In this document: positions 29,536 through 36,626 of the stretch, in pieces | How positions within the stretch are numbered: the stretch's first letter is position 1 | How the letters are laid out: every line of letters begins with the position of its first letter | Origin: Candidatus Bathyarchaeia archaeon | GTDB taxonomy: Archaea; Thermoproteota; Bathyarchaeia; 40CM-2-53-6 | NCBI GenBank assembly: GCA_050013255.1 | Contig: JBEKFP010000002.1 | Coordinates: 705,185-769,184, forward strand | DNA: 64,000 bases | Reading direction: 5' to 3' | Position numbers and translations under genes: made by a program | The notes under the pieces: generated by a model | Database searches by the model: none | What the model saw: only the letters and a program-made list of their open reading frames with translations | What the model was told of the DNA's origin: nothing

Positions 29536-30072
29536 TTCGCGAACTGCCCCTATGCACAACTTCGCTAAATAGATGCTGAACTCAGAACAGGTTTCGAAAA
29601 AAATTAGAAATTCAGTCGACACATTTCATGAGAAGCTAGCTACAAGACTCTGAACGTTTCATAAGATGTTCAAGAATTCAGAATGAACGGTGATGGTACG
29701 CAATCATTGGGCGTTGACCAGGAACTCTTTGCGTCTAATTCCATATGTGAGCTTCTCAGAATCAAACGACTCTGACAACGCCCCACTTGCCCAAGATTCT
29801 AACCCTGCCCGCTTACATGATTCTTCATTGTTTCCTAGTGGTTTGCAATGATGGTGCCATTGGTGAAAAGCAAGTATTACTGGTCAGCTGGCTTACACCT
29901 CGAAGCCCCCCGTTGAAATGTTCTGAGCAATTGTCTATCTTTTGCGTCAAGAAATGGTATGATTAGGGTTTTATCATTCACCGATTTGACAATGCTTATC
30001 CAAACGCTTAAGTGCGTTTACGACGGCACGGTAGTTCCGAGTTAATTCAACTAAAGGAGGCTAATTAGGAAA

Positions 30073-30888
30073 ATGGTCAAGAAATGCCCATCATGCGGCT
30101 ACAATAACCGCGACGACGCAGCATTCTGTTCAAGTTGTGGATCCTCAGTCGGTGGCTCAGTGGGGCCAGCACTCAAACCAGTCCCTTCAGTCCGCGTTGT
30201 GACTCCCGTCAGCCCGGGCAACCCAATCAGGGTTCCGGCACCCGGCCAATGCTACTATCACCCCAACCTGCCCGCCGTCTACGTCTGTAACCGGTGTGGA
30301 AGAGCAATTTGCCGCGACGACTCCAAGGCCTACATGGACCTGGTACTCTGTCCGCAGTGTTACCAAGGCGTTGTACCAATGGTAGCAGCTCCGCAAATGC
30401 AACAACCACCTATGCAAATGCAACAACCTATGCAGATGCAGCAACCACCTATGCAAATGGGACCACCACCTATGCAAATGCAAATGGGACCACCGATGGG
30501 TGGCCCTCAGGCTTTCATGGCGCCGATGCCACAATACTATCAACCGTCCCCGCCAAGAGCGCTATGGGGATTCATACTAGCAATGATTGCAGGAATCCTC
30601 GTGATCCTTAACGCAGCAGCTTTGCTCTCACCAAGTTTCTACAGCTTATGGACCGGCATCTTCTTCTGGTTGCCAGCTGTTGGCCCCCCGAGCCTAACGT
30701 TCGCGATAGGCGCGATTATCGGGCTCATACTGGTAATCGGATCGATACTAATGCTGCTAGGATTCGGTACAATTGGAAGCATCGTAGTCTTTCCGTTGGC
30801 GGTCCTGAGCCTGTTGATCGGCGGAGGGTTTGTGGCCGGATTCGTTTTGGGCGTGCTGGGCGGAATACTCGGCATGCTCGGACGCTAG
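30073..30888 (+). CDS. Zinc-ribbon + B-box-type zinc finger + P/Q/M-rich linker + C-terminal membrane domain protein
   Basis: CPSC..FCSSC; CYYHP..AVYVCNRCGRAIC...LCPQC; QQPPMQM repeats; about 4 Gly-rich TMs; GGAGG SD upstream. Confidence 0.85.
   Translation: MVKKCPSCGYNNRDDAAFCSSCGSSVGGSVGPALKPVPSVRVVTPVSPGNPIRVPAPGQCYYHPNLPAVYVCNRCGRAICRDDSKAYMDLVLCPQCYQGVVPMVAAPQMQQPPMQMQQPMQMQQPPMQMGPPPMQMQMGPPMGGPQAFMAPMPQYYQPSPPRALWGFILAMIAGILVILNAAALLSPSFYSLWTGIFFWLPAVGPPSLTFAIGAIIGLILVIGSILMLLGFGTIGSIVVFPLAVLSLLIGGGFVAGFVLGVLGGILGMLGR
30391..30500 (+). repeat. Imperfect coding tandem repeat (CAACCACCTATGCAAATG-like units) encoding a Q/P/M linker
   Basis: About 5 units of 15-21 nt visible in the sequence. 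Confidence 0.8.
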
Positions 30889-30943
30889 GGCCAAAAGGAA
30901 AATTCCCGTTTTTTTGTTTCCTTCCGATTTCTGGGTGTAGGCT

Positions 30944-32215
30944 TTGTCCTACGTGAGCATAGGGAAGCCTGTTAACGAAAAGATAGTGCACGCTGCGCGT
31001 AACAACAAAAATGAGATCGTCGGCCTGCTATTAGGAAGACTTGAAGGTAATACGCTAATAATAGAAAACTCAATTACCGGTGAATCCTCAGCCGCGCCGC
31101 ACAGGGTAAGCCTCTCTTCGAACGCTCTGGCGAAAATCGCGGACGGGCTTGTGACTGGGCTAATAAAAGGGAACATTGTGGGTTGGTACCATTCACATAC
31201 CTTGGGCGGACTTTTCTTCTCTGAAACAGACATCGAGACTCAAAGAACCCTTCAGCAATTCTCGAAACTGATTGTGGGAATGGTCGTGGACACATTGACC
31301 GGGGAAGTTGGGTTCTTTCGCGTGGACTCTCGGACAGGTGAGGCCGTACGTTTACCCGCTGAGAGGATCAGTGTCTTTTCCGGAGTTTATGAAGCGATTC
31401 CCCAAGAAACGATTGCTCCCCGCATGAGTGTACCAACGCTGGAAGTAGGGAGTGCAACTCCATCAAGGATGCCTCGAACACTCGGCGTTTTCGGGGCCGT
31501 GGGTCCCGTCATTTATCTTTCAGCCCTGTTGCTTGGCGGGTTTCTGTGGCCCGGCTACTCACAATACCGCGATACAGTTAGCACTCTCACTTCGGCAAGT
31601 TCACCCAATCAAGTCAGAGAGGTAATGCTTCTCCTCTTCGGGCTCTACAATGTCTGCGTAATCCTCTTGGCGGTCGGCCTCTACTACGGAATCGAGGGCG
31701 GGCACCTCTGGGGACCAGTGTCGCTTTTGGGCACGGGCGCCTTAGGCCTAGTCCTGTTTCTGTTTCCAGAGGACTATCCCCAAGGGTTTCCTGTTACGAT
31801 AACGGGCACCTTCCACATTGTGCTTGCCGGAGTCATCACCTTCCTCTCGCTGACCGCAATGGCATTCTTTTGGCGTCATTTCCGCCCCGACCCACACTGG
31901 AAGAATTACGTCCATTTCAGCATCGCAATGCTGCCGATCTCGACCGCCCTTGGTGTGTTTGTAGTAATCTCGATTTCCGCTCCGTACCTAGGACTTGCCG
32001 AACGTTTGTCGATTGGTTCAATCTTGTTCTGGATGGAGGCTGTCTCAATTAGACTTATCCTTCCCAGAAGGAAAGGCAACACGTCAACCAACCCAGCTGT
32101 GTTAGCCGCAGGCCTAGAGTTGCGTTCAAATGTCGGGGCATCTCAGCAAGCGATATATCCCGAAAGTAATCAGGGCGGCTGGGACCGCATTTTTCCATTC
32201 GGTCCCCCCTCATAG
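30944..32215 (+). CDS. Rpn11-like JAMM/MPN+ metalloprotease fused to a DUF998-like multi-pass membrane domain
   Basis: NEIVGLLLG...IVGWYHSH-x7-S-x2-D (FSETDIETQ); C-terminal about 6 TMs with PGYS..DTVS.L and GLAERL. Confidence 0.88.
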   Translation: MSYVSIGKPVNEKIVHAARNNKNEIVGLLLGRLEGNTLIIENSITGESSAAPHRVSLSSNALAKIADGLVTGLIKGNIVGWYHSHTLGGLFFSETDIETQRTLQQFSKLIVGMVVDTLTGEVGFFRVDSRTGEAVRLPAERISVFSGVYEAIPQETIAPRMSVPTLEVGSATPSRMPRTLGVFGAVGPVIYLSALLLGGFLWPGYSQYRDTVSTLTSASSPNQVREVMLLLFGLYNVCVILLAVGLYYGIEGGHLWGPVSLLGTGALGLVLFLFPEDYPQGFPVTITGTFHIVLAGVITFLSLTAMAFFWRHFRPDPHWKNYVHFSIAMLPISTALGVFVVISISAPYLGLAERLSIGSILFWMEAVSIRLILPRRKGNTSTNPAVLAAGLELRSNVGASQQAIYPESNQGGWDRIFPFGPPS

Positions 32216-32255
32216 TAAGATAGTTTAAGCACATCTGTGAAAATGAAAGGTCAGC

Positions 32256-32522
32256 ATGAGTGGAGGTGAAACGTCGCAAATGAAACTTTTTGTTCAAGCG
32301 CCTATTGGCCCTCAGACAGGCCTTGCGGAGATCGATGTTATTCCAGACCACACGGTTGCGGAGATAAAGCAACAGGTCTGCCAATCCTTCAACGTTGACC
32401 CAAGTACTGTGGCTCTCATGTATGGTGGCGCAATACTGGACGAGAGCACGACCGTTGCAAGGTTAGGCATTCCAGAGAATTCTCAGCTTGCACTCATGCC
32501 ATACAATATCATCGGCGGGTAG
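32256..32522 (+). CDS. Eukaryote-like ubiquitin
   Basis: MKLFVQ...DHTVAEIKQQV...LMYGGAILDESTTVARLGIPENSQL pattern matches the Ub beta-grasp; ends in GG-stop. Confidence 0.92.
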   Translation: MSGGETSQMKLFVQAPIGPQTGLAEIDVIPDHTVAEIKQQVCQSFNVDPSTVALMYGGAILDESTTVARLGIPENSQLALMPYNIIGG

Positions 32523-32533
32523 TCTGACTAGCA

Positions 32534-33130
32534 ATGGATGTTCCACTCCTGCTCAAGGAGAAGAACCTGCTCAACCACCAATTCCCAACAGTCACCGCAA
32601 TGAACGATCCTCCAACCCAATTCGAAGGCCTGATCCGCTGCGAAAAGGGGGAGGTCATGAAGCTATCGGAGAAGGGAGTCTGGCCCTTCACTGATTACAC
32701 CAACTGGCACCGGTTCAGACTTGACATTCCCCCAGAATACCCGTTGAAACCACCCGTGGCGACTTGGCTCACGGAAATTTCACACCCAAACATAGTACCG
32801 AAAATCCCGAATGCTGTATGCGTTTCAATACTCGGAGAAAAATGGGACCCCAGACTGAAACTCATTTCGGTCGTAAATGCGTTACATTACCTGCTAACGG
32901 ATCCGAACCCTCAGAGCGTGTTCGACAATCCCCGCGCCCTCAAAGCGGCAAACGTATGCCGCTCCTATGGATTCCCCAAAATGACAAAAGTCAAACCGAA
33001 AAGTAAGGAAACCGACGACATCGTCCGATTCAACGTGGTGCCTGTGCCAGAAACGAGGAATGCGGCTTCAGAGGCTGGGGATATCGTTAGGTTCGACCTT
33101 TCTGGACGGGGACATCGAGCGTCTTCTTGA
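32534..33130 (+). CDS. Ubiquitin-conjugating enzyme E2 (UBC fold)
   Basis: FRLDIPPEYPLKPP...HPNI...VCVSIL..KWDP...LLTDPNP; HPN motif and catalytic Cys intact. Confidence 0.95.
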   Translation: MDVPLLLKEKNLLNHQFPTVTAMNDPPTQFEGLIRCEKGEVMKLSEKGVWPFTDYTNWHRFRLDIPPEYPLKPPVATWLTEISHPNIVPKIPNAVCVSILGEKWDPRLKLISVVNALHYLLTDPNPQSVFDNPRALKAANVCRSYGFPKMTKVKPKSKETDDIVRFNVVPVPETRNAASEAGDIVRFDLSGRGHRASS

Positions 33131-34371
33131 TGCGCGTGAATGCTTCCCTCCCTTCCTACAAGCAAATAGAAGTGGAGCTGAACCCCAACAAGACGGCGAG
33201 AGACCTTAAAGGAATAATTTGCAAAAAACTAGGGATCGAACCTGAACTCACCAGACTACTAGCCCACGGGAAACCGCTACCGGATCATACACGTCTCTCG
33301 AGAATTAAGGAAACGGTGACCATTGACTACCTGTGGGCGCGACACTTGCTCCTCTGGGGCCTGGATGGCCAAAGAAGGATAAGAGATTCATCGGTGCTCC
33401 TCGCAGGCGCCGGCGCCATTGGCAACGAGGTAGCCAAGAACCTAGCTATGCTAGGTGTCGGGCGAATTATCATCGTAGATAGGGACACCGTGGAAATGTC
33501 TAATGTTAGCCGCATGGTCTTCTTCGAAAAAAGCGACTTGGGAAAGAACAAGGCTGAAGTCCTTGCAAGGAAAATCCACAGGAAATATCCCTTCGTCCAA
33601 ACGATCGCCTTCCGTGGCGCCCTTGAACGATTGCCACTGAAATTCTATTTGGATTCAAACGTGATAGTGTGCGGCCTCGACAACGTCGTTTCGCGAATCT
33701 TCCTAACCCAGATCTGCAGAAAATACTCTGTCCCGTTGGTTGATGGCGGAATCACGGGGATGAACGGCAGAATCCACGTATACCTCCCCCCCAACGATGC
33801 CTGCCCTGTATGCATGTTTCCGCCCAACCAATACTCGAAAATCGTTGGTTTGCGAAACCCGTGTGACGCCCCGTTGGAGCAGGAAGCCGTCCCATCCTTT
33901 TCGACAACAATCTCACTGGTCTCATCAATACTTGCCCAAGAAACGATCAAGCTGATCATTGGAATGGAAGAATACCGATCCAATGCAAGATGGCCAGAAA
34001 GTAGCGGCCAGCCACTAAGGTCAGTTCTGTTCTTGGATTTGAGAAATAATCGGTACACTCCGATGGATTTGAAGCGAGGCGAGAAATGCCTCGTATGCGG
34101 AAAGGAGGGGACGACCAGGGAACCTGCCCAACGGGGCGACCTAATGATCTCCACGGTCAGTCGTTCAAAGGGGAATTTGGCTGAAAACATTCGTCGCCAC
34201 GCCAAAATCGATGGCAAAGTGCTGCGCATACTCTTAGAAACGTCTGAGGGAACAAGGTTGTTGGATGGGCATTCGAAGCGGGGAAAGAGTGTGGGCCGAG
34301 GTGACTATCTCAGGGTTCTTGTTGACGGCAAAGACGAGGAGTTTCATGAATCAATTCTAAGGTTGACGTAG
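33127..34371 (+). CDS. Ubiquitin-activating enzyme E1 (ThiF/MoeB fold) with an N-terminal ubiquitin-like domain
   Basis: N-terminal Ubl (KTARDLKGIICKKLGIEPELTRLLAHGKPLPD); RHLLLWG, GAGAIGNEVAKNL, DRDTVEMSNVSR, GLDN, CPVC, NPC (candidate catalytic Cys), CLVC. Confidence 0.93.
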   Translation: MMRVNASLPSYKQIEVELNPNKTARDLKGIICKKLGIEPELTRLLAHGKPLPDHTRLSRIKETVTIDYLWARHLLLWGLDGQRRIRDSSVLLAGAGAIGNEVAKNLAMLGVGRIIIVDRDTVEMSNVSRMVFFEKSDLGKNKAEVLARKIHRKYPFVQTIAFRGALERLPLKFYLDSNVIVCGLDNVVSRIFLTQICRKYSVPLVDGGITGMNGRIHVYLPPNDACPVCMFPPNQYSKIVGLRNPCDAPLEQEAVPSFSTTISLVSSILAQETIKLIIGMEEYRSNARWPESSGQPLRSVLFLDLRNNRYTPMDLKRGEKCLVCGKEGTTREPAQRGDLMISTVSRSKGNLAENIRRHAKIDGKVLRILLETSEGTRLLDGHSKRGKSVGRGDYLRVLVDGKDEEFHESILRLT

Positions 34372-34512
34372 GAAGAATCTTGTATCAACCGTGTCACACA
34401 TTCGCAAGAGACCTATCGCCAAAGCCATCAATTGCCACATTTCACGGCGAATTTGAATGGGTAAGCGCATCCGCGCTTAAGTAACCGTTAAGAAATGCTT
34501 GATACCAATTGA

Positions 34513-34929
34513 ATGCGTGGTTCAAAGATGCCAATGTGTCAGGCCTGTGGCAAAGCCAACTCGGATGATGCAAGGTACTGTTTCAGCTGCGGCGTGTCGC
34601 TTGTCAATATACCACCTGTCAAAGTTGATGTGAAGTCACCTCTGACAGCTTCCATGAAGCCAACCCCCGCAGCTCCTATGTCCCCATTAACCTATGCTCC
34701 GAGGCAATTGCAGAGGCAAGGAAGCTGCTACTATCACTCCGAGTTGCCATCAGCATTCGTCTGCTCAAGATGTGGAAGGTCAATTTGTGCATCCTGTAAC
34801 AGACAATATGGAGTCCTAAGCCTGTGCACGGAATGTTACTGGGGATTGGCGCCGAAGCTGGGGTCTCAATCCGACCAATACGTGATGGGTGGCGAACAGC
34901 AAGCGCGTTCACCCTTCTCGCCTTTCTAG
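34513..34929 (+). CDS. Soluble zinc-ribbon + B-box-type zinc-finger protein (paralog of the 30073 N-terminus)
   Basis: CQACG..NSDDARYCFSCG; CYYH..AFVCSRCGRSICASC...LCTEC. Confidence 0.85.
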   Translation: MRGSKMPMCQACGKANSDDARYCFSCGVSLVNIPPVKVDVKSPLTASMKPTPAAPMSPLTYAPRQLQRQGSCYYHSELPSAFVCSRCGRSICASCNRQYGVLSLCTECYWGLAPKLGSQSDQYVMGGEQQARSPFSPF

Positions 34930-36626
34930 GCTAAGCGACCCTGATTCTTTAGCCGACTCGTTATTGTCTTGAGTTCTTCAATAGGAATTCCGAGTTCCGC
35001 TGAGGCCGTGCTTAACGAGATTACGCCTTCATGCTTCACGATGTAATCGTATACCTTATCATCCAAAGGCGGTACCATGGGCGCTTCCATCGGAGCTCCG
35101 CACTTTTCACAGAATGTCCCCTTCGGAACAAGATTCCCACAGGTACTGCAAATCTGCATTCCAACCGGGGCGGTGGGCGCGCCTACTGAAGCAGGAGGAT
35201 TAAGCATTGGTCGCGCACGGTCGAACGCACCGCGTCTGCGTGCAAGAACGAACGCCACCGCGACGACCACGACCGCGATTCCGCCACCACCAAAGAGTTC
35301 GACAAGCGGAAGATAGTCAAAGCTCCACTCAGCTTGGACAACGTACGGTCTGTCCACAGTCAGACTCCATGAATGATCAGTCTTCGTGAGGACCCCTGAC
35401 GAGGGCTCGAGCTGCCAACCAGTTAGAGTGTATGAAATAGGCCAAGTTTGAGAACTAGTAGTGGCAGTGATATTTGCTGTGGACCCGCGGTCATACCACC
35501 CTGACCCTGCAACCGAACCCTGCGAAGATCGCACATCCACATAATACTGGGTCTTGTACGAGATGGTGATTGTACGCGGCTGATCCATGACCACTGTGTA
35601 GGACGGGTTTGAAGAAGTTGAATTATTGTCGGTCCAACCGATGAAGCTAAGGCGCTCGACGGAGCTCAATTTGACAGTTGATGGAGCTGGGCCAAGCTGG
35701 ACATTTGAGTTGACATCATACCAGCCTGCATGAGATTCGTTATATCCTGAGGAAATGCTCACTGGGTTGTATTGAACGGCAAGCAAGTATTGAGCGAGAA
35801 AATTCGCACTGACTGTCTGTGGCCGGTCCATTAGGACCCGCCCAGTCGTTGATTGACCCGAGTAGTCTCCGCTCCAGTGTTCAAACATAAGACGCGTATT
35901 GTCACTGGCCGGCAGAACTGCAGCAGCGGAGAAGGTCGCTTCGCTCCCCGAATCATACCAACCAGAGCCGGAGAGGCCCGAAACGTTGGCGGGGTTGGAC
36001 ACCACTGTCAAAAGGAATTGCGTCTTCCAGTTCGCTATGGCGGTCTTCGGCCCAGTCATGAATATTTGCGCCGTAGTCAAACTAGTTCCAGACGCGTCTC
36101 CTGACCATCCTGTGAAGACTTCTCGTGTTCCTTGACCCTGATCGACATTCGCGTCATTCACGGTCGCTTGCACCGCCGTGTCAGATTCATACCACCCTTG
36201 ACCGGTCGAGGTGCTGTAAGATGTTTTTACGGTGAGATAGTATTGCGCTGTGTAAGTGAAAATGTGGCTGCCGGCCGCGGTGAAGCTCCATGACGCGTCC
36301 TGCTCATAGAAACGCGTGCCGTTAGCTAAGATGCTATTCGGGACGTAAGAATCTACTGTGATTATGTGGCCGGTGTTTGGAACGGAGAACGTTAAGGAAA
36401 GGGTCTGGCCCCCGTTAATGGTTGTGTTGAAGGTCCCATCAACGTAGAGGTTAGTGCTAACGGTTGATGGAAGGCCTGCTATGCTAACTGAAACCGAGTA
36501 AGAGAGCTGGGCTCCGACATATGGTGTGATAAGACCAGCTACGACAAGGCAAAACGCGAGCGTTAACAATGGCCGCGCGGAAAGATGCAACCCCGGTCTT
36601 CTCGTCTCGTGAGTTCGAAGCCCCAT
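34926..36626 (-). CDS. Single-pass surface protein: extracellular beta-repeat domains, TM, cytoplasmic double zinc ribbon and wHTH (PCI-like) tail
   Basis: Signal peptide; four QY.L.V...G.GWYD...GW...MD.P repeats; TM then RRRG; CSTC/CEKC; KVYDYIVKHEGVISLSTASAELGI. Confidence 0.8.
   Translation of the reverse strand: MGLRTHETRRPGLHLSARPLLTLAFCLVVAGLITPYVGAQLSYSVSVSIAGLPSTVSTNLYVDGTFNTTINGGQTLSLTFSVPNTGHIITVDSYVPNSILANGTRFYEQDASWSFTAAGSHIFTYTAQYYLTVKTSYSTSTGQGWYESDTAVQATVNDANVDQGQGTREVFTGWSGDASGTSLTTAQIFMTGPKTAIANWKTQFLLTVVSNPANVSGLSGSGWYDSGSEATFSAAAVLPASDNTRLMFEHWSGDYSGQSTTGRVLMDRPQTVSANFLAQYLLAVQYNPVSISSGYNESHAGWYDVNSNVQLGPAPSTVKLSSVERLSFIGWTDNNSTSSNPSYTVVMDQPRTITISYKTQYYVDVRSSQGSVAGSGWYDRGSTANITATTSSQTWPISYTLTGWQLEPSSGVLTKTDHSWSLTVDRPYVVQAEWSFDYLPLVELFGGGGIAVVVVAVAFVLARRRGAFDRARPMLNPPASVGAPTAPVGMQICSTCGNLVPKGTFCEKCGAPMEAPMVPPLDDKVYDYIVKHEGVISLSTASAELGIPIEELKTITSRLKNQGRLA

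Follow-up and report, generated by a model that had tools for sequence, protein, structure and literature searches.

The 64,000-nucleotide stretch analyzed here (the window) comes from a Candidatus Bathyarchaeia archaeon (GenBank assembly GCA_050013255.1, contig JBEKFP010000002.1, positions 705,185 to 769,184 of the forward strand), whose genome is 2.46 Mb in three contigs, with a marker-gene completeness of 100% and a contamination of 8.55%. On the plus strand of the window, six genes in close succession encode a membrane-anchored zinc finger protein that we call BBm, a membrane-fused JAMM deubiquitinase, ubiquitin (Ub), an E2, an E1, and a soluble zinc finger protein, BBs (Table 1). We are concerned here with BBm and BBs, which flank this ubiquitin core, and with the possibility that they serve at the ligation step in place of a RING protein.

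The original prediction had proposed that the genes at 30073 and 34513 encode paralogous zinc-ribbon/B-box proteins. Both open reading frames were confirmed, and BLASTP aligns the products at 37% identity over 118 amino acids (E 9e-23), far beyond chance. Each has a zinc ribbon with the common motif C-x2-C-G-x2-N-x-DDA-x-[FY]-C-x-S-C-G (Zn_Ribbon_1/PF13240 type) and, after a Pro-rich linker, a finger with the pattern C-x2-H-x8-C-x2-C-x4-C-x2-[C/D]-x9-C-x2-C. This is the predicted layout, except that two residues, not one, lie between the ribbon Gly and the Asn. The expectation that one copy is anchored and the other soluble also held: BBm has a hydrophobic C-terminal domain, modeled by AlphaFold2 as helices 164-183, 187-203, 206-228, 232-250, and 254-269 with a predicted local distance difference test (pLDDT) score of about 90, and BBs has no hydrophobic segment. 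A resemblance of the membrane domain to DUF6114/DUF4064 is a lead only, from an ESM-Atlas feature search and below trust level; in VIA-align, the BBm model matches generic four-helix bundles (Z up to 10.6), which is uninformative for this domain. BBs likely starts at Met6 (34528), the point where most of its orthologues begin. Its eight ligands, C72, H75, C84, C87, C92, C95, C105, and C108, are invariant among 70 sequences. In BBm, ligand position 6 is an Asp, so that ICRDD stands where BBs has ICASC. This difference, noted in the original prediction, is real; the Asp is kept in 118 of 120 orthologues, which rules out reading it as decay of the second zinc site. The BBs family also has a conserved C terminus, R/H-S-x-F after the Q/Y/P-rich tail (window 34843-34926), sometimes extended by -x-P-F; it is not an HbYX motif.

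Table 1. Features of the operon and its two B-box proteins, with the anchored RING genes of Caldarchaeales (window positions unless a locus is named)
Feature	Position	Strand	Basis
BRE/TATA-like (B recognition element/TATA) element of the operon, ~65 nt 5' of the first gene	30005..30013	+	Conservation only
BBm, anchored paralogue, 271 aa (amino acids): zinc ribbon, linker, B-box, P/Q/M-rich spacer, four-helix membrane domain	30073..30888	+	
BBm zinc ribbon, residues 5-23	30085..30141	+	Zn_Ribbon_1 31.4 bits
BBm linker motif KPVPSVRVV, residues 35-43	30175..30201	+	Conservation
BBm B-box-type binuclear finger, residues 58-98, Asp83 at ligand position 6	30244..30366	+	pLDDT ~90
BBm membrane domain, residues 161-271	30553..30885	+	Hydropathy and AlphaFold2 helices
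JAMM/MPN deubiquitinase fused to DUF998 polytopic membrane domain	30944..32215	+	Pfam JAB 44.9 bits, DUF998 68.3 bits
Ubiquitin, GG-stop end	32256..32522	+	Pfam ubiquitin 42.1 bits; orthologues 74-86% identical
E2 (UQ_con), HPN motif, Cys96, conserved C-terminal tail	32534..33130	+	61.9 bits
E1 (ThiF), N-terminal ubiquitin-like domain	33127..34371	+	ThiF 168.5 bits; ubiquitin 30.9 bits, residues 11-59
TATA-like box 5' of BBs	34485..34494	+	Conservation only
BBs, soluble paralogue, 138 aa: zinc ribbon, linker, B-box, Q/Y/P-rich tail	34513..34929	+	
BBs zinc ribbon, residues 9-27	34537..34593	+	Zn_Ribbon_1 23.2 bits
BBs linker motif PPVKVDVKSPL, residues 34-44	34612..34644	+	Conservation
BBs B-box-type binuclear finger, residues 70-110	34720..34842	+	Ligands invariant; pLDDT 88-92
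Receptor-like single-pass protein, convergent neighbor	34926..36626	-	Flg_new_2 48.7 bits
Caldarchaeal anchored RING gene (Caldiarchaeum subterraneum and three other Caldarchaeales)	L137:8880-9632, L138:9430-10125, L140:9295-10020, L142:2514-3218	L137 +	

Metagenomic contigs and 20 genomes of at least seven families show the same gene order, BBm-JAMM-Ub-E2-E1-BBs. Of 64 species-level loci, 61 have one or more ribbon-B-box genes next to E2/E1, and the remaining three are contigs no longer than 3.2 kb; both copies were seen in 27 of the 35 loci whose flanks are complete, and BBm alone in another 6. Co-occurrence with E2, which had been proposed as a check, was examined in 151 evenly drawn Bathyarchaeia genomes. 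E2 was present in 25, every one of which also encodes ribbon-B-box proteins, and a B-box match of the BBm/BBs subfamily was found in 1 of the 126 genomes lacking E2. The original prediction had further held that homologues distributed independently of ubiquitin systems would speak against it. In part they are so distributed: the superfamily, rhomboid fusions included, is widespread without ubiquitin, but the subfamily that combines ribbon, linker motif, and B-box is tied to the operon. From linkage alone, we consider it very probable that BBm and BBs are dedicated ubiquitin-system partners.

The association extends to distant lineages. A Thermoprotei contig carries a Ub-E2 fusion, E1, and, side by side, a JAMM protein and a ribbon-B-box protein, both with transmembrane domains; a contig labeled Thermoleophilia carries a membrane-fused JAMM, a Ub-E2 fusion, E1, and a ribbon-B-box-DUF4190 protein; and a ribbon-less B-box membrane protein heads one JAB-Ub-E2-E1 operon. 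Since the link survives in these rearranged operons with B-box membrane proteins, it seems that the anchored form is the universal partner and that the soluble copy arose as a duplicate in Bathyarchaeia. In the window, BBm adjoins the JAMM-DUF998 gene, and the anchored copy is found beside JAMM in 45 of the 64 loci. On the other side of the operon, the gene convergent to BBs encodes a receptor-like protein with InlB B-repeats outside, a transmembrane segment, and a zinc ribbon and C-terminal domain inside; it occupies this place in 54 of the 64 loci. Among its distant orthologues, it is mainly a stretch of 46-130 amino acids that stays similar, which may be the cytoplasmic tail. We regard the receptor-like protein as a candidate for a target or partner of the ubiquitin system.

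The finger is best described as a B-box, as had been predicted. All 41 domain sequences searched have Pfam zf-B_box (PF00643) as their top family (best 1.3e-6), and the B-box2-type spacing C-x2-H-x8-C-x2-C-x4-C-x2-[C/D] is invariant in both families. Scores in the window are under the gathering cutoff of 24.1 bits (17.2 and 18.3 bits for the full proteins and 21.7 bits for the isolated BBs domain), and the Thermoprotei orthologue reaches 28 bits. Of the 42 profile positions, the match spans only 2-30, and the finger closes with C-x2-C after nine residues, where a B-box has H-x2-4-H. AlphaFold2 models the finger confidently, with pLDDT of 88 to 92 in BBs and about 90 in BBm. The best matches of the BBs model among solved structures in VIA-align are cross-brace fingers of the FYVE/RIM/Slp kind, and these are weak and generic (Z 4.0-4.5, root mean square deviation 2.1-3.1 Å, 44-49 residues). 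Foldseek of the BBs model against the PDB gave no match at an E value of 0.001 or less, with the MuRF1 B-box appearing only at E 2.5, and when the B-box profile was run as a hidden Markov model (HMM) against solved structures, the hits were weak zinc fingers only (TraR at 0.0065, RNF4 at 0.12, and the TIF1-beta B-box at 0.33). Prok-RING_1 scores 14.6 bits on BBm/BBs against a cutoff of 29.1; Prok-RING_1-plus-ribbon proteins at 0.77-0.80 in the ESM-Atlas feature search are leads below trust level.

What gives these fingers a possible function is the comparison with Caldarchaeales. A phylum-wide scan for UQ_con E2s found them in further families, and one of the genomes could be identified as that of Caldiarchaeum subterraneum from its E2, which agrees with the sequence given in the PMC5654768 supplement. 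Its genes run JAMM (minus strand), Ub, E2, E1, srfp, so that srfp, an experimentally proven E3 (PMC5654768), occupies the slot of BBs. In Caldarchaeales, this gene after E1 encodes a RING protein of 75-88 amino acids (zf-RING_2 39.6 bits). About 1.2 kb past srfp, all four srfp-bearing Caldarchaeal loci also have a gene for a four-helix membrane protein whose last domain is an srfp-like RING-H2 (zf-RING_2 38.1 bits), which is probably the membrane E3 partner of the characterized soluble srfp. Both lineages thus pair a soluble and an anchored binuclear finger with a Ub-E2-E1 core. The two operons share the Ub-E2-E1 order, an adjacent JAMM gene, and a small soluble binuclear zinc finger directly after E1, with a second, anchored copy nearby. 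They differ in that the JAMM of the window is membrane-fused and co-oriented, its E1 has an N-terminal ubiquitin-like domain, and its finger proteins have, in addition, a zinc ribbon at the N terminus and a conserved motif in the linker, while the anchor is C-terminal and not N-terminal.

The similarity reaches into the finger itself. The srfp ligand pattern is C-X2-C-X11-C-X2-C-X4-H-X2-C-X10-C-X2-C (PMC3082918), and hhalign places ligands 3 to 8 of the BBs-type finger in register with it (36 columns, probability 50.8%, E 1.6e-4), with C for H and X9 for X10. Trp58, Ile30, and Arg69 of srfp are required for its activity (PMC5654768). In the alignment, Tyr99 is paired with Trp58, so that an aromatic residue is kept at this position, Thr/Pro106 with Pro66, and Tyr109 with the linchpin Arg69; Tyr74, a conserved aromatic between ligands 1 and 2, lies outside the aligned range. 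Tyr74, Tyr99, and Pro/Thr106, all conserved, stand where the E2 contacts of srfp call for a hydrophobic residue between ligands 1 and 2, a Trp after ligand 6, and a Pro after ligand 7; they are similar to these but not identical. The window finger further departs from srfp in being a B-box rather than a RING by Pfam, with His at ligand 2, a shorter first loop, and no linchpin Arg. The E2 of the window keeps the canonical E3-contact loops, with Y-P-L-K-P-P present, and its H84, P85, N86, C96, Y69-P70, W104, and P106 are invariant in the orthologue alignment. The earlier claim that BBm and BBs replace a missing RING is borne out to this extent: zf-RING_2, Prok-RING_1, RINGv, and the Caldarchaeal RING profile find no RING at threshold in the genome, BBs sits in the srfp slot, and BBm has its counterpart in the anchored RING of Caldarchaeales. 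The accompanying label "non-RING" may overstate the difference, as the srfp finger is itself noncanonical and shares the register of ligands 3 to 8.

Between ribbon and finger, both proteins carry a short, highly conserved motif in the linker. In BBm, KPVPSVRVV has a mean pairwise identity of 0.98 among 62 orthologues, compared to 0.84 for the B-box, and K35, P36, V37, P38, V42, and V43 are invariant; in BBs, PPVKVDVKSPL stands at 0.85, ahead of the B-box (0.77) and the ribbon (0.66), and P34, P35, V36, K37, V38, and P43 are at least 90% conserved. Both monomer models show the motif as disordered (pLDDT below 50 in BBm), and strings resembling P-x-K-V-x-V-x-K-x-P occur in both distant homologues (Thermoprotei and "Thermoleophilia"). 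It could be a docking site that adds a strand to Ub, to the ubiquitin-like domain of E1, or to the E2 tail, in the manner of a SUMO-interacting motif (SIM); it could equally be a lysine acceptor site, for which the soluble family reads V-K-V-[E/D]. The C-terminal tail of E2 (window 33005-33110, residues about 158-193) has two motifs kept across 23 orthologues, R-F-N-[IV]-[IV]-P-[VI]-P and a second one containing RF; such short, strand-like elements could be binding partners of the linker motif or of a ubiquitin-like domain. According to Pfam, all three accessory proteins of the cluster, BBm, BBs, and the receptor-like neighbor, have a zinc ribbon. In BBm and BBs its spacing, C-x2-C-x3-N-x6-C-x2-C, is that of RanBP2/NZF fingers. 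With Pfam Zn_ribbon_RanBP, the ribbon reaches 13.9 bits in the window and 19.7 bits in the Thermoprotei homologue, both below the cutoff of 27, and the BBs ribbon matches RanBP2/NZF structures in VIA-align at Z 3.0-3.6 (Npl4 and TAB2 NZF at 3.0-3.3). Neither ribbon has the leading Trp or the Thr-Phe ubiquitin-binding dipeptide of NZFs; Lys/Met and Gly-Tyr or Gly-Lys are found instead.

We regard an E3-like role for BBm and BBs as the best single reading of these sequences, held tentatively and at somewhat less than an even chance. It follows mainly from the one-for-one positional and architectural parallel with the Caldarchaeal RING pair, and the strong constraint on the finger (mean pairwise identities of 0.84 and 0.77) speaks in its favor. 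With the same reserve, the two proteins would be dedicated to targeting and to the ligation step in an archaeal ubiquitylation system associated with the membrane, as functional counterparts of the soluble and anchored Caldarchaeal RINGs. One can envision that E1 would activate the GG-ended ubiquitin and then charge E2, that the B-box cross-brace finger of each paralogue would bind E2 at its canonical loop-4/loop-7 surface, and that the invariant linker strand, the zinc ribbon, or both would hold ubiquitin, the ubiquitin-like domain of E1, or the E2 tail, so that transfer of ubiquitin from the finger-bound E2 would be stimulated. BBm would bring the ubiquitin-charged E2 (E2~Ub) to the cytoplasmic face of the membrane, near targets such as the tail of the receptor-like neighbor, BBs would perform the same task in the cytosol, and the membrane JAMM would reverse the modification.

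Several observations weigh against an E3-like role. BBm and BBs have no zf-RING_2 match and no match at threshold to any RING model in Pfam, an HMM built from the Caldarchaeal RINGs does not retrieve either protein at an E value of 1 or less, and the profile-profile probability of the srfp alignment, at only about 51%, makes the likeness modest. The position of the srfp linchpin Arg69 holds Tyr or Phe after the last Cys in both B-box families. The best-conserved element of both proteins is the Lys-bearing linker motif, not the finger, and this suits a docking or acceptor role no less than that of a catalytic scaffold. The sole E2-negative genome with a close B-box paralogue is 98% complete. 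In prokaryotes, the superfamily is mostly fused to membrane domains (such as DUF4190, Rce1-like, rhomboid, and LiaF) in organisms without E2, and prokaryotic B-boxes are assigned to membrane-protein folding, stability, and proteolysis, not to ubiquitin, in the passages of PMC4506424 that cite Burroughs 2011. Finally, the genome itself encodes a 139-amino-acid B-box plus DUF131 membrane protein (L014:1483-1902; C2:584095-584511) between the genes for RNA polymerase subunit D and ribosomal proteins, and its orthologues occur in 70 of the 151 Bathyarchaeia regardless of E2 or the ubiquitin operon.

That leaves other roles for the two proteins. They might be the principal substrates or autoregulators of the system, with the lysine-bearing linker as an acceptor read directly by E2; ubiquitylation would then switch BBm and BBs or their membrane partners. 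We think this unlikely, although it would account for a linker that is the best-conserved element of both paralogues (0.98 and 0.85), disordered in both models, with a Lys that is invariant or nearly so (K35 in BBm and K37 in BBs). The V-K-V-[E/D] of the soluble family fits psi-K-x-[E/D], and Ubc9 reads psi-K-x-E directly. The Caldiarchaeum E2, for its part, modifies itself without an E3 (PMC5654768). However, neither the anchored copy nor the distant homologues keep the acidic position, and a substrate role leaves unexplained both the constraint on an eight-ligand finger and the positional equivalence with the Caldarchaeal RING pair. Since E3s are commonly autoubiquitylated, the substrate and E3 roles are in any case compatible.

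Alternatively, BBm and BBs could be adaptors or receptors, in which the finger binds peptides and presents membrane or ubiquitylated proteins to the membrane JAMM while ribbon and strand bind ubiquitin noncovalently. The membrane-fused JAMM is indeed the immediate neighbor of the anchored copy in the window, as it is in the Thermoprotei locus and most loci of Bathyarchaeia; PMC4506424 portrays prokaryotic B-boxes as partners in the stability and proteolysis of membrane proteins, and fusions to Rce1-like and rhomboid peptidases exist. Yet both B-box genes persist where JAMM has been replaced (L022, L023, and L035) or where its gap is empty (L025 and L033), and BBs adjoins E1, not JAMM. The ribbon, which has RanBP2/NZF spacing, matches the Npl4 and TAB2 NZFs at Z 3.0-3.3, and recurs in all three accessory proteins, would suit ubiquitin binding, but the Thr-Phe dipeptide and leading Trp are absent and a Z of about 3 over 30 residues is weak. 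This role, too, seems improbable to us. A still more skeptical explanation is that linkage reflects inherited synteny only and that these are generic B-box membrane-associated modules unrelated to ubiquitin, as could be expected of a broad superfamily found mostly outside ubiquitin contexts and including a four-paralogue array with no ubiquitin genes nearby. Linkage across at least seven families and two distant lineages with rearranged operons and Ub-E2 fusions, together with a phyletic pattern of 25 of 25 versus 1 of 126, makes this highly improbable.

Some variation was seen within the operon itself. In one Bathyarchaeia family, JAMM is replaced (L022:7021-8175, L023:7095-8261, and L035:7298-8383, all on the minus strand) by a single-pass protein of 360-388 amino acids whose N-terminal tail is rich in Pro, Arg, and Tyr and whose extracellular repeats are beta-rich; no gene lies between the anchored B-box gene and Ub in L025 and L033. 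Ub-E2 fusions, in which the GG of Ub runs straight into E2 (L100:5752-6627, L101:5758-6465, L106:5584-6291, and L141:5232-6050), are found in the Thermoprotei contig, the "Thermoleophilia" contig, a Thermoplasmata contig, and a Caldarchaeal-type genome. The operon also appears on contigs L048, L051, L054, L060, and L101, in bins with bacterial labels (Acidiferrales, Nitrospiraceae, Acidoferrum, Methylomirabilota, and Thermoleophilia). The E2s of the first four are 72-76% identical to that of the window, and these are probably misbinned archaeal contigs; L101, which has actinobacterial-looking neighbors, may be a real transfer.

The start of the operon is marked by conserved upstream elements. 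A CTTAAG-type box lies 59-69 nucleotides 5' of the BBm start in 31 of 45 orthologous loci, with TTTAAG variants at the same position in most of the others, and GGAGG directly precedes the BBm start codon. The conservation of this box implies that BBm is the first gene of the operon. A GTTAAGAA/GTTAAAGA box is kept about 30-45 nucleotides 5' of the BBs start in the closer orthologous loci, and the conserved GTTAAGAA-type box suggests, from sequence comparison, that BBs has its own promoter. In the whole window, the 9-mer CGCTTAAGT has just two occurrences, one 5' of each paralogue. As a shared regulatory site it was dropped, because 11 of 100 shuffles also give two matches and the copy 5' of BBs is not conserved across orthologous loci.

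Judged by its sequence, the finger is a member of the B-box radiation already known from prokaryotes. With the domain as a profile, 1,176 clusters are retrieved at an E value of 1e-3 or less among 1.84 billion representatives. Of the 148 best relatives, 89 match zf-B_box at that threshold (best 2.4e-16); in most, the finger precedes multipass membrane domains, often in tandem, with fusions that include DUF4190, Rce1-like peptidases, and DnaJ, and among structure neighbors in the ESM Atlas are proteins that join a B-box to LiaF or rhomboid. Their 25 commonest Pfam families include no UQ_con, ThiF, ubiquitin, or JAB, and no candidate emerged when longer proteins that fuse the finger to E1, E2, or Ub were sought. 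BBm and BBs have the finger family in common with this radiation, most members of which carry the finger on the cytoplasmic side of membrane domains, frequently as tandem copies and at times together with membrane peptidases; BBm and BBs differ in forming a subfamily inside an E1/E2/Ub/JAMM operon that co-occurs with E2.

Other members of the superfamily were seen in passing. A metagenomic contig (L144:183-3731) has a tandem array of four paralogous B-box multipass membrane proteins, with no ubiquitin genes within 5 kb. In the source genome, two further paralogues lie away from the operon (L003:1489-2058 and L004:1408-1776, the latter on the minus strand): one joins a ribbon-less B-box to a BBm-like membrane domain and has no close orthologue in the 150 other sampled genomes, and the other is a 122-amino-acid protein with a ribbon and a degenerate B-box. 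Together with BBm and BBs, these could make up a small repertoire of finger proteins serving one E2. A 983-amino-acid protein (P0212, L145:7001-9952), encoded among genes for Ser/Thr kinases, FHA, and PP2C proteins, has a beta-propeller and Flg_new_2 ectodomain with a BBm-type B-box (CRDD) as its cytoplasmic tail, a natural fusion that links receptor-like ectodomains to this type of finger.

Eukaryotic proteins offer further points of comparison. As in TRIM proteins and MID1, a B-box-type cross-brace finger is found in a ubiquitin-system protein, and weak E3 activity has been reported for B-box1 of MID1; here, however, no RING or coiled coil stands alongside, the last pair is C-x2-C rather than H-x2-H, and structural matches to solved B-boxes are weak. 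The short hydrophobic strand beside a zinc finger (V-x-V-V or V-K-V-x-V) resembles, by analogy only, that of the SIM-assisted E3s RNF4, PIAS, ZNF451, and RanBP2; here the strand could grip the donor modifier and the finger E2, and the modifier is ubiquitin-like, not SUMO. Likewise, a cytoplasmic cross-brace finger on a small helical membrane domain, with a soluble E2, may be likened to the membrane RING ligases MARCH, Hrd1, and Doa10, but the finger is of another type and the membrane part, a generic four-helix bundle, shows no sequence kinship.

The accepted model for the ancestor of eukaryotic ubiquitylation is an E1/E2/RING cascade of the archaeal type, and only the Caldiarchaeum version, which is soluble, has been reconstituted so far. 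The version described here is widespread in Bathyarchaeia, abundant archaea of soils and sediments. A B-box-type finger stands where Caldiarchaeum has a RING, and the proposed ligation-step protein, the deubiquitinase, and the receptor-like neighbor are all tied to the membrane. The literature searched, whose coverage did not extend to the key 2011 survey, contained no paper describing this B-box ubiquitin arrangement. The parallel pairs of soluble and anchored proteins, RING in Caldarchaeales and B-box in Bathyarchaeia, make the proposal testable by swapping components in the established in vitro assay. In its strongest form, in which the B-box finger with its invariant SIM-like strand and NZF-like ribbon is a true archaeal E3 in tethered and soluble forms, the proposal is in our judgment rather doubtful. 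If true, RING and B-box fingers would be interchangeable at the E3 position of an ancestral five-gene archaeal cassette, and both the connection of B-boxes to ubiquitin, as in TRIM proteins, and membrane-anchored ubiquitin ligation, as in MARCH ligases and endoplasmic reticulum-associated degradation, would be pre-eukaryotic. Should the B-box proteins be ligases, they would provide a small, bacterially expressible system for studying how a non-RING cross-brace finger activates E2~Ub, and the ubiquitylation of membrane proteins would be older than eukaryotes.

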